From positions 8,352 through 72,351 of the forward strand of contig CAZAFN010000002.1 in NCBI GenBank assembly GCA_964484795.1: a stretch of 64,000 nt of DNA. Direction: 5' to 3'. Below the pieces are notes generated by a model. The model had not been told where the DNA came from and ran no database searches. It saw only the letters and a list, made by a program, of their open reading frames with translations. This DNA comes from an uncultured Alphaproteobacteria bacterium. Lineage in GTDB: Bacteria > Pseudomonadota > Alphaproteobacteria > Methylaequorales > Methylaequoraceae. This document shows, piece by piece, positions 57,128-64,000 of this stretch (positions are counted from its first letter, which is position 1; every line of letters starts with the position of its first letter). A program made the translations under genes and the position numbers.

Positions 57128-57439
57128 ATGAAAAACAATTCAATTAGCAATATGAAAATGAATCTAGAAGATCATATTTCAACCATCAACACAAAAAAGA
57201 TTGGTCAAAAAAATTCGCTAGAAGAGGTCGCTCAAGAGTTTGAATCCTTATTTGTTTTTCAAATGCTTAAAAGCGCAAGAAAAGCAAAGCTAGCTGAAGG
57301 CATATTAACCAACGAAGCTTTTGATACTTATCAATCAATCCTAGATCAAGAATACGCCAAGACGATTGCAAAAAATCAAAGCTTTGGAATAGCAGAAGCA
57401 CTAATAAGACAGTTTGGCAAATATGAGGATGTTAAGTAG
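57128..57439 (+). CDS. flagellar rod-binding protein (FlgJ N-terminal-domain-like)
   Basis: Rod-binding domain pattern (AQEFESLFVFQMLKSARKA…); the stop overlaps the flgK GTG start (TAGTG). Confidence 0.6.
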   Translation: MKNNSISNMKMNLEDHISTINTKKIGQKNSLEEVAQEFESLFVFQMLKSARKAKLAEGILTNEAFDTYQSILDQEYAKTIAKNQSFGIAEALIRQFGKYEDVK

Positions 57440-60400
57440 TGCCAAGTTTATTTGACATAGGAAAAAGTGGTCTTCAATCTTACAGGCAATCTTTAGCTGT
57501 AACTGGTCAGAACATTGCAAACATAAATACTGATGGATACAAAAAAAGAGAAGCGGCTCTTGAAGAAGTATCTGGTGGTGGTGGTGGTGTAACGGAAATT
57601 TCTGATCAAACGGGGTTAGGAGTTAGAGTTGGTGAAATTAGACGTGCATTTGATCAATTCTTGGTTGATAAGGCTAGACAGACATCTTCCATATATAAAA
57701 AGGCCGACACATATCTTGATGAAGTTAAAGATTTAGAAAACCTTTTATTACCTAGTGACTCAAACTTAAGCACTTCAATCGGAGATTTTTTTAATTCATT
57801 ACAAGAAATTGCAGCTGCTCCAGATGATCAAGCTCCAAGAATAATCGCCGTTGAAAAAGGGAAGGATCTTGCTGGTCAATTCAATCTATATTCAGATAGA
57901 ATTGAAAGTTTGAAAAAAAAAATAGTTGATAAATCAAAAAACTCGGTAACCTCAATTAATCTTCTGTCAACACAAATTAACAGTATAAATGGAAAATTGT
58001 TGGCATCAAGTTCAGGTAGTGGTGCAAATGCGCTCCTTGATCAAAGGGACATTCTAATAGATCAACTTTCAGAAGTTTCTCAGATAACTGTTTCTTACGG
58101 AAGCAAAGGTGAAGCTGAGATTAGACTTGGTAACACAGGTTCAGGACCAATAATTGTTGAAGCAGATTCATCATCTTCAAAAGGAAACAATTCTACTACT
58201 AATGTTGATGTTATTATTCAAGGTTCAAGATTGCAAACTGTTGTGGGGATAACTAAAACTGCCACCAATCAAGTGCAAGCTGGAATTCTAGCTGGTTTAG
58301 TCGATTCATATGCTTTGGCAAATGACACAATGAATGAGGTTGACGCCCTGGCAGTGATGATCTCCAAAAAATTCAATGAAATCAATATGTCAGGAATTAA
58401 TCTAGATGGAAAAAATGGAAAACAAATGTTCTCTGTTTCAAGTCTTGAGGCCGTAGAAAACCCAACTAATAGATCAAGTGTAGGTGTGGCCCTTTTTGTA
58501 ACTGATCCAGAAAAAATCCAAGAAAGTGCGTATAACGTTATCTTTCATGAAAAAACCGGTGAATGGAATTTAACTTCAGAAAAAATCAAAACTGCAATAA
58601 CAGGAACTGAAACAATTGAAGCTCCAGGATTCAGAATTTCATTTTTTGGTCAACCACTCGATGGAGATGAATTTAACATCACTCCTACTAGTGCATCCAA
58701 AGGAATGAATTTTCTTCTAGAGAGACCTCAAGATTTTGCTGCCGCCTCTACTTCCATGATTAGCTCAAGTTCAACCAACTTAGGGTCAGCAAAACTAGAT
58801 GAAATTTCACCAATTAAAGAAAAAGATAAAACTACATTGTTGAATTTGAATTCTGTTTTTTCAAATGGTCTTAGTCCAGTCACAGCAGGAGAGTTTACGT
58901 CTGATGGAGGAGCAGCCATCATTCCAACAGGAACTTCATTTGTAAACTTAAGTTCATACAAATCTCAACCACAGATAAAATTTGGCTTATCAGCATCTGA
59001 CATCCCAAAACTTACAAGTTTTACGGTCACATTGTCTGATTCAAGTACTGTGACAGTAGATTTAACCGGAGTAACTTCAATCCAGGAAGCTGCAGATGTA
59101 CTTAACAGGAGTAGAGACGTTCAAGGAAATTCTCACAATTTTAGATCAAAAGGGCTTTTTGCTTCAGGAGGTGGATCAACTTTGACTGTAGCAAGCAATA
59201 ACCTTACTTTTTCTTCTGGATCTTTAACCGCTGGAACTGCTATTAATGGTGTTGCAAACAATCCATCAATAACAGCAGCAAGCCAAGTTCAAATTTTCAC
59301 TAGAGAAGGAAGACATTTAGCTGGCACGGTTCTTACAACATCTGAAATAGCAAAATATTTGTCAGAGGAAAATGGTTTCTCAAAACATGCTGAATATAGA
59401 GCTGACTATCTCAATGGAACCGGAAGCGAAAATTATAGAGACATTGACATCTCAAGATCAACAATATCCGGAAACCACACTATAAGTTACGGTGCCAATG
59501 GTACGGCAGCGAGTGCACAAAGAGCCGCATCAACCGTTCCTTCAAGCCATGTTTCTTCAGCTTTTACATTGACCTTAAATTCAACAACCACGGGAAAGTC
59601 TGAAAACATTAGCGTCCCTGTAGAATCTTCATCTGGTTATGTTGCAGGATTGATAAATGCCAATACAAAAAGTCTAGGTTTAGAAGCATCAGCAAACACA
59701 AGAGTTAAAATCCCTGCACCAGCTTTTGATGGAACAATATCTTTTACACTTAAAAGCAAACAAGGGGTTGATAATAGTGCAGCAATTAGTGCTTCGATAT
59801 TAACGAATGATTTGACAAACCTTGCGACTACAATAAATAACTATTCCGGAAGAACAGGTGTTATTTCTCACTTGTCCAGTGACAAAAAACATATAATTCT
59901 TGAAAATAGTAATGGAGACGACATTCAAATAAGTTCTTTCTCAAGTTCCAACACGGCAAACAATCTAACAATCAACACTACAAGTTTGGGTTCCAGTGCC
60001 TCAGCAACCATATCAAAAAATGGACATGGACTTGAAACTGGTGACAAGGTTATTTACACCGCTGGTGGAACTCAATTAGGCAACCTTACAAATGGTGGAA
60101 CATATTATGTAATAAAGGTAAATGACAACAGTTTCAAGGTTGCGTCATCAAGCAGCAATGCTTATGGAGGGACGGCAATTACCGTTGGTGGTAGTGGTGG
60201 AAACGCAAATGACAAATTTACAATACCAATGAGTCTGGAAATTCTTAAGAATGACTTCAATGGGTTTTCCAGTGCTCAATCAATTGATTTAGATGGCAAC
60301 AGCTATAAAGCTGGAAGATTTAGTGGAGAACTGCATATTGAATCATCTTCAGCATTTACTACATCTAATGATGGTGGATCCACAACAGTCTCAAGTTCAC

Positions 60401-62847
60401 AAAATTCTCTAAAAGATGGATTTATGAGTGTAACCTCATCTTCTACGGGAGAAACAAAAACAGTTAGTCCACTTGTTTTGGATGCTGACTTCTCATCTGG
60501 ACATCCAGACGGAGTTAATTCTGCAAGTTCCGTATTAAGTTATGGGCTAACATTAGCTGCAAGCGGAACGGGAAGTGCTTTTACTACAACCGTAGATGTT
60601 TCAAAAAACGATAAATTAAGTACGGCAGAGGTATCCAAGAAAATTGCCGAAGGATTGAGAGCTAATAGCCCTTCAACTGAAATGACAGGCACTTCGGTTG
60701 CATCAATTCCTGCAGATGGTTCAAGTTTTAAAGTAGATCATGATGGCTTAACCTACACCTTAACAATGGAAAATGGTGAAGTAATTGTTTCAGGTGGAGA
60801 AAAGGATCTTTTAACGGCTTATTTTGATGACCCAGACGCAATCACAGTTAACACCACATCACTCAATGGAGCCACAACGATAACTTCTAATGAACACGAT
60901 CTCGAAACTGGAGATGCCATTGTTTACAATGCTGCCGAAAAAGTTAATGTTGATACCACTAATTTTACTTCAGTAACCACCATAACTGCAAAAAACCATG
61001 GTTTTGCTACTCAGGACCCCATAATTTATAAAGCTGGGGGATCTATGCCAATTTCAGGTTTAACGGATGGAACCACTTATTACGCAATTAGAGTTAATGA
61101 TGATAGTTTTAAATTAGCAACCTCTTCAGTAAACGCTGGTTCTGGTACGGCTATAACAATAGCAGGAGGAATAGGTGGGAGTGTTTCTGACAAATTTTCC
61201 AGTCCACGAGCAGGCTTGTTAGACGGAGAAACTTATTATGTCGTAAAAACTGATGATCACAATTTTAGGTTGGCTCAAACATATACTCTTGCAACAAATG
61301 CTAGTCCTTCCGTAATTACAATTGGAACTGGAAACGTTGGTGGTAACAGTGCAGACACATTTGACCCTGGAAAAAGATTATACATTTCCGCTGGAAAAAC
61401 CATATCTGGATCTCAGTTTTCATTTCCAACGGACAGCTCAAACGACACCAATTCATTAGACTTTGGAATGGATAAAACCAACGTAGAAACATCTATCACA
61501 GGTAGTGAAATCACTACTCCAACATATACAAAAGGCGGCTCTCCAACGGTCACACAGACTCATTTTCACTTTACATTTGGGCGCGAACAGCCATATTGTG
61601 TAGCTTATACGGACAATACAAAAACTGTAAACACAACGTCAGCAGTTTCTTCAAGTGAAATAACCTCTAGTTCTCACGGTTTCAAAACGGGAGACAAGAT
61701 TGAATATAATAAGGCAGGAACCGTATTGAATGGTCTTACAGATAACACCTCATATTTTGCCGTTGTCACTGGTCCAAACACCTTCAAACTTGCAAGCACT
61801 TGGGCAAATGCAACAGCAGAAACTCCGACCACAATGTCAATTGGAGGAAGTGGTGGAAATGCAGGTGATACATTTACAAGCATAGTTGCAGGCATTTATA
61901 ATGATGATTTTCCAGGTGGAACGGCATTAACAAATCTTGGAATTTCTATGGAGTTGACTCAATCAAGTGACACTAAAGCACAATTATCATTTGTTAAGGA
62001 AGCCGACAAAAATCAGATTGTCATAAGCAATGCTAAATATGATTATTTGGCTACAACTAGTGATAGAGAAGCTGAAAATTTTGGCTTTAAAACAAATCAA
62101 ATGAACGTAAATGTAATAAATGATGATATAAAAATTCAGTCATTTACGTCAGATTCTCGAGGGGCAAAGGCAGTTGATCTAGAAATTCCTTCTAATAGTA
62201 TTAAATCTTTAGTTGGAAACAATTTGTCAATCAAAAATTTACCCCCTGAGGACTTGATAATGATCATGACCGGCAACGGAACAAGAAAAATTGGTTCAAG
62301 TTATGGGGAAGTTCTTCCACCCCCTCCTCCATCTGAATATAAGGTAGTAGTTGACTCAACTAACAACAAAAAAATTGAGATTTTTGATGCATCAACCAAT
62401 CATTCAATTGCGTCAAGATTGATTCCTGACAATGGAATAATCTCTGCAGTGGACAAATCTCTAAGATTTACTGGAGAAACATCCACAAAAGACATTTTCA
62501 ACATTACAAATAATACTGAGGGAATTGGAGACAACAGAAACATTTTAAAAATGATTGACTTGCAAGAGTCAGATGTGAATGGTTTAAATTCTGGAAGTTT
62601 CCAGGATATTTTTAATCAAACTGTTGCAGAAATTGGTTCGACGGTGAGAAGTGGGCAATTAACCCTTCAAGATGCCGAATCAACAAAAAATGAAGCAAAG
62701 GCAGCTGAAGATGAAATGGCTGGTGTATCATTAGATGAAGAAGCATCGTCTCTAATTCAATTTCAACAAGCTTTCTCAGCAAATGCTAGAATCATTCAAA
62801 CTGCTCGAGAGCTATTCCAGTCATTGATGATGGTTGTTTCCAAATAG
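57439..62847 (+). CDS. flgK: giant flagellar hook-associated protein 1 (FlgK), 1802 aa
   Basis: FlgK N-terminal domain (LFDIGKSGLQSYRQSLAVTGQNIANINTDGYKKREA) and C-terminal helices (VSLDEEASSLIQFQQAFSANARIIQTARELFQSL). They flank a central insert of about 1400 aa that is Ser/Thr/Gly/Asn-rich and contains internal repeats. Confidence 0.8.
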   Translation: MPSLFDIGKSGLQSYRQSLAVTGQNIANINTDGYKKREAALEEVSGGGGGVTEISDQTGLGVRVGEIRRAFDQFLVDKARQTSSIYKKADTYLDEVKDLENLLLPSDSNLSTSIGDFFNSLQEIAAAPDDQAPRIIAVEKGKDLAGQFNLYSDRIESLKKKIVDKSKNSVTSINLLSTQINSINGKLLASSSGSGANALLDQRDILIDQLSEVSQITVSYGSKGEAEIRLGNTGSGPIIVEADSSSSKGNNSTTNVDVIIQGSRLQTVVGITKTATNQVQAGILAGLVDSYALANDTMNEVDALAVMISKKFNEINMSGINLDGKNGKQMFSVSSLEAVENPTNRSSVGVALFVTDPEKIQESAYNVIFHEKTGEWNLTSEKIKTAITGTETIEAPGFRISFFGQPLDGDEFNITPTSASKGMNFLLERPQDFAAASTSMISSSSTNLGSAKLDEISPIKEKDKTTLLNLNSVFSNGLSPVTAGEFTSDGGAAIIPTGTSFVNLSSYKSQPQIKFGLSASDIPKLTSFTVTLSDSSTVTVDLTGVTSIQEAADVLNRSRDVQGNSHNFRSKGLFASGGGSTLTVASNNLTFSSGSLTAGTAINGVANNPSITAASQVQIFTREGRHLAGTVLTTSEIAKYLSEENGFSKHAEYRADYLNGTGSENYRDIDISRSTISGNHTISYGANGTAASAQRAASTVPSSHVSSAFTLTLNSTTTGKSENISVPVESSSGYVAGLINANTKSLGLEASANTRVKIPAPAFDGTISFTLKSKQGVDNSAAISASILTNDLTNLATTINNYSGRTGVISHLSSDKKHIILENSNGDDIQISSFSSSNTANNLTINTTSLGSSASATISKNGHGLETGDKVIYTAGGTQLGNLTNGGTYYVIKVNDNSFKVASSSSNAYGGTAITVGGSGGNANDKFTIPMSLEILKNDFNGFSSAQSIDLDGNSYKAGRFSGELHIESSSAFTTSNDGGSTTVSSSQNSLKDGFMSVTSSSTGETKTVSPLVLDADFSSGHPDGVNSASSVLSYGLTLAASGTGSAFTTTVDVSKNDKLSTAEVSKKIAEGLRANSPSTEMTGTSVASIPADGSSFKVDHDGLTYTLTMENGEVIVSGGEKDLLTAYFDDPDAITVNTTSLNGATTITSNEHDLETGDAIVYNAAEKVNVDTTNFTSVTTITAKNHGFATQDPIIYKAGGSMPISGLTDGTTYYAIRVNDDSFKLATSSVNAGSGTAITIAGGIGGSVSDKFSSPRAGLLDGETYYVVKTDDHNFRLAQTYTLATNASPSVITIGTGNVGGNSADTFDPGKRLYISAGKTISGSQFSFPTDSSNDTNSLDFGMDKTNVETSITGSEITTPTYTKGGSPTVTQTHFHFTFGREQPYCVAYTDNTKTVNTTSAVSSSEITSSSHGFKTGDKIEYNKAGTVLNGLTDNTSYFAVVTGPNTFKLASTWANATAETPTTMSIGGSGGNAGDTFTSIVAGIYNDDFPGGTALTNLGISMELTQSSDTKAQLSFVKEADKNQIVISNAKYDYLATTSDREAENFGFKTNQMNVNVINDDIKIQSFTSDSRGAKAVDLEIPSNSIKSLVGNNLSIKNLPPEDLIMIMTGNGTRKIGSSYGEVLPPPPPSEYKVVVDSTNNKKIEIFDASTNHSIASRLIPDNGIISAVDKSLRFTGETSTKDIFNITNNTEGIGDNRNILKMIDLQESDVNGLNSGSFQDIFNQTVAEIGSTVRSGQLTLQDAESTKNEAKAAEDEMAGVSLDEEASSLIQFQQAFSANARIIQTARELFQSLMMVVSK
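60022..61880 (+). repeat. Degenerate ~65-aa intragenic protein repeats in the FlgK central insert (at least 3.5 copies)
   Basis: Copies at nt 60022-60228, 60995-61206, 61214-61367 (partial), 61672-61880, plus a partial copy at about 60892. They share [GS]HG[LF]xTGDxIxY…GLTDGTTYY.I.V.D.SFKLA.S…GTAIT..GG.GGN..D.F. Identity is at the amino-acid level only (about 40%). Confidence 0.5.
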
Positions 62848-62855
62848 GAGAATGC

Positions 62856-63785
62856 ATGAAAAAAACATTTAATCAGGAAATTAATTTAAAAATAACTTCT
62901 AAAAATCCTAACAAGAACGTTCTCTTCAATAAATCAGATGAATTCATCAATGAAATTATAAATGCTATAAACAAAAAACATCCAGATAGTTTTGAATTTG
63001 AAACCACCCAAAAGGTTGGGATAGATTTCTTCACCAAAAAGATGGAAAAGAATGAAAACTTTTCCTTTGTAAAATATGGTGATGGAGAATTACTTTGTAT
63101 GATCGGTCGTAAAGGAAAAAATAGTATAGATGACCACCCATATTCAGAAAAATTAGGAAAACTTCTTGAAGAATCATTTGTTAATTTATTCAGATTTCAC
63201 GATGATGTTTACTTAGCGGATTGGACTGACAATTTAACAAATACCAGAGATAGTTATATTTCCATCAATGGCTTAAACCCAAAATTTGCCGAATACGAAT
63301 GTTTTTTGACTCTCGAAGAAAACATAAAAAACAATAAACTGCTAAATTTTTATAAACTTCTTAAAAGGTCCAAAAGAAAAAAAATTTTTATTGGCCCAAA
63401 AAAACTTGCAAAAGTTCAAGAAATGCTAAATGTTGACAAATTCATAGACGTACCGATTGTTGATGCTTTCTCGGAATACGATAGAATCAAATCTCAACTA
63501 TTTGACTATGGAATAAATGACGATAACGTTTACATTTTATGTTGTTCCATGATGTCTTGCGTGATTTGCAGTGATTTAAAAGAAATGAATTCAAAAATCA
63601 CTTTACTTGATGTTGGGAGTGGTTTTGATCCTATATTTAGTCAAAAAACAAGACCAAAACAACCCACCAGCGCAAATTGTTTTAACTATTTCAGAGAAGT
63701 ACTCCCTGATGGATACGTCTTCAGTAAAACTAGCGATGCAGTGAACAGTATAAACAATAGGAAAATGCATGAAAAAAACATTTAA
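62856..63785 (+). CDS. GT-D (DUF1792)-like putative glycosyltransferase, copy 1; 3' end reads into the duplicated segment
   Basis: …FVKYGDGELLCMIG… resembles the N-terminal [RK]xGDGE motif of GT-D-fold glycosyltransferases. Begins 8 nt after the flgK stop. The last ~10 codons (…NNRKMHEKNI) are encoded by the repeated upstream/start region of copy 2. Confidence 0.35.
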   Translation: MKKTFNQEINLKITSKNPNKNVLFNKSDEFINEIINAINKKHPDSFEFETTQKVGIDFFTKKMEKNENFSFVKYGDGELLCMIGRKGKNSIDDHPYSEKLGKLLEESFVNLFRFHDDVYLADWTDNLTNTRDSYISINGLNPKFAEYECFLTLEENIKNNKLLNFYKLLKRSKRKKIFIGPKKLAKVQEMLNVDKFIDVPIVDAFSEYDRIKSQLFDYGINDDNVYILCCSMMSCVICSDLKEMNSKITLLDVGSGFDPIFSQKTRPKQPTSANCFNYFREVLPDGYVFSKTSDAVNSINNRKMHEKNI

Positions 63786-64000
63786 TCACGAAATTAATTT
63801 AAAAATAACTTCTAAAAATCCTAACAAGAACGTTCTCTTCAATAAATCAGATGAATTCATCAATGAAATTATAAATGCTATAAACAAAAAACATCCAGAT
63901 AGTTTTGAATTTGAAACCACCCAAAAGGTTGGGATAGATTTCTTCACCAAAAAGATGGAAAAGAATGAAAACTTTTCCTTTGTAAAATATGGTGATGGAG
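63769..64000 (+). CDS. GT-D (DUF1792)-like putative glycosyltransferase, copy 2 (3' end outside the window)
   Basis: All 232 nt visible are identical to 62856-63087 apart from one substitution (Q7H). Confidence 0.35.
   Translation, partial: MKKTFNHEINLKITSKNPNKNVLFNKSDEFINEIINAINKKHPDSFEFETTQKVGIDFFTKKMEKNENFSFVKYGDG

Follow-up and report, generated by a model that had tools for sequence, protein, structure and literature searches.

Why should a gene resembling those of glycosyltransferases stand between flgK and flgL, and which protein would its product modify? The question is raised by a stretch of 64,000 nucleotides (nt) from an uncultured member of the Alphaproteobacteria (contig CAZAFN010000002.1; hereafter the window), near the end of which an open reading frame (ORF) of 309 amino acids (aa) directly follows a giant flgK gene. 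The original prediction, made from the sequence of the window, was that this ORF encodes a GT-D (DUF1792) glycosyltransferase acting on FlgK rather than on flagellin. Here, we report that the product is very probably a divergent glycosyltransferase of the GT-D fold, as judged from sequence profiles and a structural model, and that it likely takes part in flagellar glycosylation. In the reading that we prefer, to which we give a probability of about 0.55 from sequence and analogy, the enzyme would lengthen an O-linked glycan carried by flagellar export substrates, flagellins above all. The features at the center of the question are the following.

57439..62847, plus strand: flgK, giant hook-associated protein 1, 1802 aa (Pfam domains)
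62846..62855, plus strand: junction of flgK and the GT-D gene, with AGGAG over the flgK stop codon and an 8-nt gap (sequence reading)
62856..63785, plus strand: predicted GT-D-fold glycosyltransferase gene, copy 1, 309 aa (profile, model, motif)

The ORF at 62856..63785 is present in the window as annotated and starts with ATG. The upstream gene is a true flgK, as had been assumed: its product matches FlgK_D1 (PF22638; E-value 1.1e-44) and carries the rod-type N-terminal domain Flg_bb_rod (1.5e-5) and Flg_bbr_C (1.6e-10). Counted from its TAG stop codon (62845-62847) to the ATG, the intergenic gap is exactly the 8 nt that had been noted (62848-62855), and a Shine-Dalgarno-like AGGAG (62846-62850) overlaps the stop codon. 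The sequence past the window end was read for 10 kb on scaffold SUTE22-1_SAMN10231916 scaffold_198 of the European Nucleotide Archive (92.8 kb; L001), part of which is identical to the window. From the flgK stop to the flgL start, the plus strand showed no terminator-like site.

The family assignment is carried by homologues rather than by the protein alone. As a single sequence, the window protein produced only noise against the sequences of the Protein Data Bank (PDB) and no reported match to PF08759, while its three sub-threshold family matches all point to one superfamily. A search of 5.8 billion proteins yielded 101 homologues, nearly all of them unnamed ocean-metagenome proteins, and 30 of these, with identity down to 37%, were aligned (alignment A1). 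PF08759 (GT-D) is matched by 17 of the 30 (best E-value 1.6e-10) and PF22882 by 19. Thus, the match to PF08759 that the original prediction called for is seen through the homologues and not in the protein's own Pfam score. Searched against 177,635 PDB sequences, the A1 profile found only 4PHR/4PFX (8.3e-7) and 5V4A (1.6e-3), all of them GT-D enzymes. An AlphaFold2 model built on A1 (predicted local distance difference test, pLDDT, 90.3; predicted template modeling score 0.87) has the three-dimensional GT-D fold: in a Foldseek comparison with the PDB it gave exactly three significant matches, 4PFX (7e-9), 4PHR (3e-8), and 5V4A (3e-7). Profile and model therefore both recover the dGT1 DUF1792 structures (4PFX, 4PHR), and together with the motif described below they bear out the GT-D/DUF1792 assignment despite the sub-cut-off score of the protein by itself. 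No TPR, GT-B, or Maf/DUF115 domain was matched in the protein by Pfam or NCBIfam.

When 1.84 billion cluster representatives were searched exhaustively with the profile, 2073 were recovered at E ≤ 1e-3. These wider relatives have in common with the window protein the catalytic core alone (profile positions about 40–60 to 280), and many are fused to GT2, GT1-like, Caps_synth (capsule-synthesis), methyltransferase, or TPR modules; the distant relatives P0320, P0321, and P0324 score above the PF08759 cut-off. The subfamily is large, divergent, and poorly covered by Pfam. The N-terminal segment of about 55 residues (helix 22–41) and the C-terminal segment of about 25 (helix 290–307) are confined to the clade found at flagellar loci. 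The closest non-flagellar homologues (38–42% identity over the catalytic core) lie on virus-like contigs, namely L006/L007 (L006 10001-10762) and L026 (10001-10717), which also carry GT1, GT2, GT10, GT11, and GT25 genes together with genes for methyltransferases, ribonucleotide reductase, PhoH, and dUTPase. These relatives have the same invariant residues as the window protein, lack the N-terminal segment and the C-terminal helix, and have no flagellar genes around them. A tblastn search of 50,697 GenBank phage records found no match.

The motif that had first drawn attention to the ORF lies within residues 71–84 of the protein, FVKYGDGELLCMIG, and is followed by a second conserved element.

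63072..63089, plus strand: K73-Y-G-D76-G-E78, predicted GT-D DXE metal-binding motif (invariance, profile alignment)
63120..63143, plus strand: N-C-D-x-H-P-Y loop, here N89-S-I-D-D-H94-P-Y (alignment A1)

The DXE motif, which binds the Mn2+ needed for catalysis, is the defining feature of GT-D (PMC9804384). In the 30 homologues K73, G75, D76, and E78 never vary and G77 hardly does; hence the YGDGE context noticed originally is not a chance resemblance. The DxE motif looked for is present as D76-G77-E78, and in the A1 profile search the GDGE of 4PHR/4PFX and 5V4A is aligned with it residue for residue, which predicts metal binding. In total, 25 columns of A1 are invariant, i.e., D76, E78, and 23 more, including N89, D92, H94, W123, K176, and the block T249-L-D-x-G-S-G-x-D258, and this holds for the virus-encoded relatives as well. 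All sequences share N89, D92, and H94 of the loop, and at least 90% have C90. The window strain has a serine in place of C90 and an inserted isoleucine (a 3-nt insertion; both changes at 63123-63128) in comparison with the 98.4%-identical gene of locus L023, which keeps the canonical N-C-D form. The differences between these two genes cluster at nt 235–292 of the gene.

The genomic position of the gene is conserved. On L001 the sequence past the window holds, in order, flgL (427 aa), p169 on the opposite strand, two 264-aa flagellin genes, a 514-aa flagellin gene, fliD, p252 (opposite strand, about 250 aa), fliS, and a gene for a 542-aa TPR protein. The three flagellin genes lie about 3 kb from the gene in the window and about 2 kb from a second copy of it, described below. 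The order flgJ, giant flgK, GT-D, flgL, p169, flagellins, fliD, p252, fliS is kept in 13 further loci; beside L001, the loci with this order are L002, L004, L005, and L008–L016, from metagenome-assembled and single-cell genomes, each judged as far as its contig reaches, and L020 keeps the same order. The compared loci are labelled uncultured Alphaproteobacteria or "Rickettsiales", and one homologue from the protein search is labelled "Pelagibacteraceae bacterium TMED195". Across loci, identity is 53–65% for GT-D vs. 75–86% for FlgL, and the FlgK upstream of GT-D measures about 1630–1800 aa in every related locus reaching that far. A glycosyltransferase gene conserved inside a late flagellar cluster, as expected of flagellar glycosylation, is therefore found here.

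Two observations were made in passing on these gene clusters. The conserved orphan gene p169 (L001 13148-13657, minus strand; 169 aa), which separates flgL from the first flagellin gene, recurs in those clade loci whose contigs cover the region, and a counterpart with 37% identity occurs in the distant locus L022; its product may be a flagellin regulator or chaperone. In L020 (5914-9703) the region past the TPR-protein gene contains a fourth short flagellin gene and two extra fliS paralogues, with a CLC channel gene interleaved among the flagellin and fliS paralogues and a Wzy_C-type gene nearby.

Two other genes of the cluster may act in the same pathway. The 542-aa TPR protein (L001 20019-end, minus strand), whose gene adjoins fliS, has a C-terminal GT9 domain, recognized through PF01075 in its homologues, one of which is named "glycosyltransferase family 9 protein" (TPR-GT9 below). 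A comparable combination of TPR and GT-B is known from FlmG, the flagellin O-glycosyltransferase of Caulobacter, whose TPR domain binds flagellins (PMC7591256). The product of p252 (L001 18854-19612, minus strand), between fliD and fliS, is by sequence a probable GT2-like (GT-A) protein, its orthologues matching Glycos_transf_2 below threshold (2.7e-4 and 6e-4); for the p169 and p252 proteins of this contig themselves, no Pfam, NCBIfam, or PDB sequence match was found. Three putative transferases, each of a different fold, thus seem to be encoded in the cluster. In the loci compared these are present or missing together: GT-D, p252, and TPR-GT9 are all absent within 10 kb from the flagellar loci L021 and L022. 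The nucleotide-sugar synthesis genes to be looked for near the flagellin genes did not appear: none was found in the housekeeping part of the window (positions 1-54000), in the 10 kb downstream, or past the cluster in a relative, the rest of the genome not having been searched. The lack of dedicated sugar-synthesis genes would fit the use of a common uridine diphosphate (UDP) sugar.

The repeat search revealed that the gene is tandemly duplicated, which had been missed earlier: a further copy, almost identical to the first, begins at 63769 and continues past the window end.

62843..63755, plus strand: duplication unit 1, 913 nt, beginning at the flgK stop codon and ribosome-binding site and ending 27 nt short of the original gene end (repeat search)
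63756..64000, continuing to L001 11834, plus strand: duplication unit 2, with the ATG of copy 2 at 63769 (repeat search, L001)

The units form a repeat family (D1) with a spacing of 913 nt and 99% identity. Copy 2 overlaps copy 1 by 17 nt and is complete in L001 (10914..11834; 306 aa), where flgL follows; both copies are intact ORFs. The junction, which carries a CAAA microhomology, turns the C-terminus of copy 1 from ...INKMCSSF into ...INNRKMHEKNI, so that its last approximately nine residues, NRKMHEKNI, are junction-encoded. All other related loci have one GT-D copy.

The possibility that the duplication is an assembly artifact was considered and rejected. The identical junction, together with the change CAG>CAC at codon 8 of copy 2, recurs in three independent assemblies (L023, L024, and L025, i.e., TARA SAMEA2622837, ERZ27286493, and JGI 3300020477), and hence the duplication is real and present in the population. 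The contigs of these assemblies break 76–82 nt into copy 2, as expected of short-read assemblers at a real repeat. The copies differ at only 2 of the first 902 coding nt, and both differences fall close to the junctions, within 21 and 34 nt; the identity of the copy interiors may therefore reflect a collapsed repeat. Horizontal acquisition was also considered on the basis of composition and rejected, as the GC content of the GT-D gene (29.9%) matches the window average (31.4%); the higher GC content of the neighboring flagellar genes probably reflects their amino-acid composition.

Between its conserved N- and C-terminal domains, the giant FlgK carries an insert of about 1300 aa (residues about 340–1650). 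The description of this insert as Ser/Thr-rich holds in part. Its serine and threonine content is 26% (about 340 residues; 13.9% Ser, 12.2% Thr), compared with 17% in the N-terminal domain of FlgK and 12.4% in the housekeeping proteins of the window; on the other hand, it is not a low-complexity serine-rich repeat, and the central parts of FliD (26.5%), FlgL (21.9%), and the 514-aa flagellin (20%) are similar. The insert holds repeated modules of about 85 aa, with three full and two partial copies at FlgK residues 846–930, 1138–1311, and 1398–1481 (window 59974-60228, 60850-61371, and 61630-61881) and the consensus ...HGxxTGDxIxY...GLTDGxTYY...FKLA...GGxGGN..DxF. In the predicted structure (pLDDT 80) the module forms a small beta-rich domain. 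Neither a significant fold match in the PDB nor a sequence match in Pfam or the PDB was found for it, and the insert as a whole matched no PDB sequence.

A search with the N-terminal domain of FlgK returned only fragments of at most 570 aa, from contig ends and frameshifted long-read assemblies, and yielded no length distribution; instead of FlgK lengths, the locus context of L021 and L022 was used as a negative control. In L021 the N-terminal domain of FlgK is 42–48% identical to that of the window FlgK and the protein, about 1550 aa in frameshifted pieces, has an insert with 31–33% identity to residues 465–1130 of the window FlgK; in L022 FlgK is about 1200 aa. In both loci flgL stands directly after flgK. 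Both also encode, beside the giant FlgK, a giant FlgE of about 1270–1354 aa (L021 2401-6230; L022 2100-6164), and neither locus contains glycosyltransferase genes; large axial proteins seem to be more widespread among these marine bacteria. Separately, FlgK residues 719–841 (window about 59593-59961) share about 33% identity with the middle domain of the 514-aa flagellin (L001 16234-16626), whose gene sits 6 kb downstream, which suggests from sequence that axial proteins share surface domains.

For the role of the GT-D protein we infer an enzymatic activity, a donor, an elongating function, and an acceptor, as follows. The protein would be a Leloir glycosyltransferase that has the GT-D fold, depends on a metal bound by its DXE motif, and works in the cytoplasm. 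Sharing a transcript with flgK and flgL, it would be made at hook completion, just before the type III export of the junction, cap, and filament proteins. GT-D, TPR-GT9, and p252 would most likely build together an O-linked glycan on axial proteins before export, TPR-GT9 being the candidate for protein recognition and priming. By analogy, GT-D would then add a hexose from UDP-glucose or UDP-galactose to a sugar already present on Ser/Thr, i.e., it would extend a glycan and not start one. Precedents are the DUF1792 domain of dGT1, which transfers glucose from UDP-glucose to glucose-N-acetylglucosamine-Fap1 as the third step, in the cytoplasm and before export (PMC5063993), and a pneumococcal GT-D enzyme that adds glucose or galactose (PMC6291802). 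Flagellins would be the most probable acceptors, with FlgK, FlgL, or FliD as possible additional ones. Docking to a partner or a substrate may be the role of the terminal helices found only in this clade, and the tandem duplication would double the gene dosage.

The original choice of FlgK over flagellin as the target of O-glycosylation was drawn from adjacency, and the gene is equally adjacent to flgL; we do not retain it. In its strong form, this explanation holds that GT-D is dedicated to the Ser/Thr-rich FlgK insert, coupled translation making enzyme and substrate together. In its favor are the gap of only 8 nt between flgK and GT-D, the ribosome-binding site that overlaps the flgK stop codon, the presence of a giant FlgK at every GT-D locus reaching upstream, and the number of serines and threonines in the insert. 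However, this enrichment is equaled in FliD and approached in FlgL and the long flagellin, and the insert consists of folded modules and is not a serine-rich repeat. L021 and L022, moreover, have a giant FlgK without GT-D, p252, or TPR-GT9 in the vicinity, and hence a giant insert can do without a GT-D gene next to it. A flagellum contains only about 11 FlgK subunits and thousands of flagellins; so few substrate molecules fit poorly with a duplication that raises dosage. A glycosylated axial protein other than flagellin has a precedent in FlgE of H. pylori (bioRxiv 10.1101/2025.07.13.664564), whereas the characterized GT-D enzymes extend glycans and do not recognize naked protein (PMC5063993). 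We therefore consider FlgK unlikely to be a dedicated target, and it is a still bolder and improbable proposition that GT-D is dedicated to FlgK, perhaps with FlgL, which would make it the first flagellar glycosylation enzyme specific for an axial protein other than flagellin and the first GT-D enzyme acting outside the pathways of Gram-positive serine-rich adhesins. FlgK is nonetheless a possible acceptor, perhaps one among several, although not the one we favor.

Two further explanations leave flagellar glycosylation aside altogether. The flagellar position might be incidental and the enzyme might act on lipopolysaccharide, capsule, or another surface glycan, as could be expected of a subfamily most of whose members are fused to, or lie beside, polysaccharide-type glycosyltransferases and methyltransferases, and of a locus without accompanying sugar-synthesis genes. 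This appears improbable given that the gene lies between flgK and flgL in all bacterial loci recovered even though GT-D identity is 53–65%, that the spacing is tight and operon-like, and that the N- and C-terminal extensions (about 55 and 25 aa) occur only in the flagellar-locus clade. Alternatively, the fold may have been retained without transferase activity, the protein being a scaffold or chaperone-like factor for the export of FlgK and FlgL, or a decaying duplicate in this strain. The replaced C90 and the residue inserted in the conserved loop of the window strain could be taken in this sense, and so could the sub-threshold family scores; yet the 25 invariant columns, including DXE and the T249–D258 block, persist down to 37% identity, even in virus-encoded relatives without flagellar context, which indicates a conserved catalytic site, and both copies of the gene are intact. 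We regard loss of activity as very improbable.

The preferred reading, in which GT-D extends a glycan mainly on flagellins, has weaknesses of its own. The window protein itself reaches none of the curated cut-offs: it scores 21.9 bits vs. 27 for PF22882 (GT-D-like), 21.7 vs. 75 for NF040628 (GT-D_rel), and 20.5 vs. 290.75 for TIGR03728, and the enzymatic function proposed for its clade is argued from sequence, model, and analogy. The substitution and insertion in the loop could impair activity in the window strain. Gene order fails to separate flagellin from FlgK, FlgL, or FliD as the acceptor. The roles given to p252 and TPR-GT9 are likewise only inferred, and TPR-GT9 is confirmed in only three loci, most contigs ending before the gene. 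Finally, the nearest non-flagellar homologues belong to virus-like glycosylation clusters, and hence the family is not intrinsically flagellar.

Compared with the founding GT-D enzymes, dGT1 (GalT1) of Streptococcus parasanguinis with its DUF1792 domain (4PFX/4PHR/4PHS) and the DUF1792 glycosyltransferase of S. sanguinis (5V4A), the window protein has the fold and the DXE motif in common with only 15–18% identity. Unlike them, it is a single domain with extra N- and C-terminal helices, and its activity is predicted. It is encoded in a flagellar operon of a Gram-negative alphaproteobacterium, whereas the founding enzymes come from a SecA2/Y2 serine-rich-repeat adhesin locus; neither a serine-rich repeat substrate nor accessory Sec genes, the features of that pathway, were found at the locus, where the neighbors are flagellar only. 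With known flagellin glycosylation systems (FlmG-type in Caulobacter, Maf-type, and the flagellin glycosylation islands of Pseudomonas) the locus shares glycosyltransferase genes placed among late flagellar genes (flgK/flgL, flagellins, fliD, fliS) and a modification presumed to be cytoplasmic and to precede type III export; the TPR-GT-B protein of the same cluster, in addition, has an FlmG-like architecture. It differs from them in the GT-D fold, the flgK–flgL position, and the lack of similarity to Maf or FlmG. Linked genes for the synthesis of pseudaminic or legionaminic acid, expected of flagellar glycosylation clusters, were also not found nearby.

It is well established that flagella can be glycosylated and that glycosyltransferase genes cluster with late flagellar genes. 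The only GT-D enzymes characterized in the literature examined act on serine-rich adhesins of Gram-positive cocci. An open full-text literature search found no paper linking GT-D or DUF1792 to flagella and none on FlgK glycosylation. The locus thus combines in a new way what was known separately, a GT-D enzyme and flagellar glycosylation genes, and involves no new principle. If true, our reading would extend the GT-D fold to flagellar glycosylation in abundant uncultured marine alphaproteobacteria. The probable GT-A and TPR-GT-B neighbors suggest a three-enzyme pathway that would assemble an oligosaccharide from ordinary UDP-sugars, unlike the best-studied systems with their single nonulosonic acids. 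The reading would also provide a proposed function for over 100 related "hypothetical proteins" known from ocean metagenomes, together with candidate genes for heterologous reconstitution.

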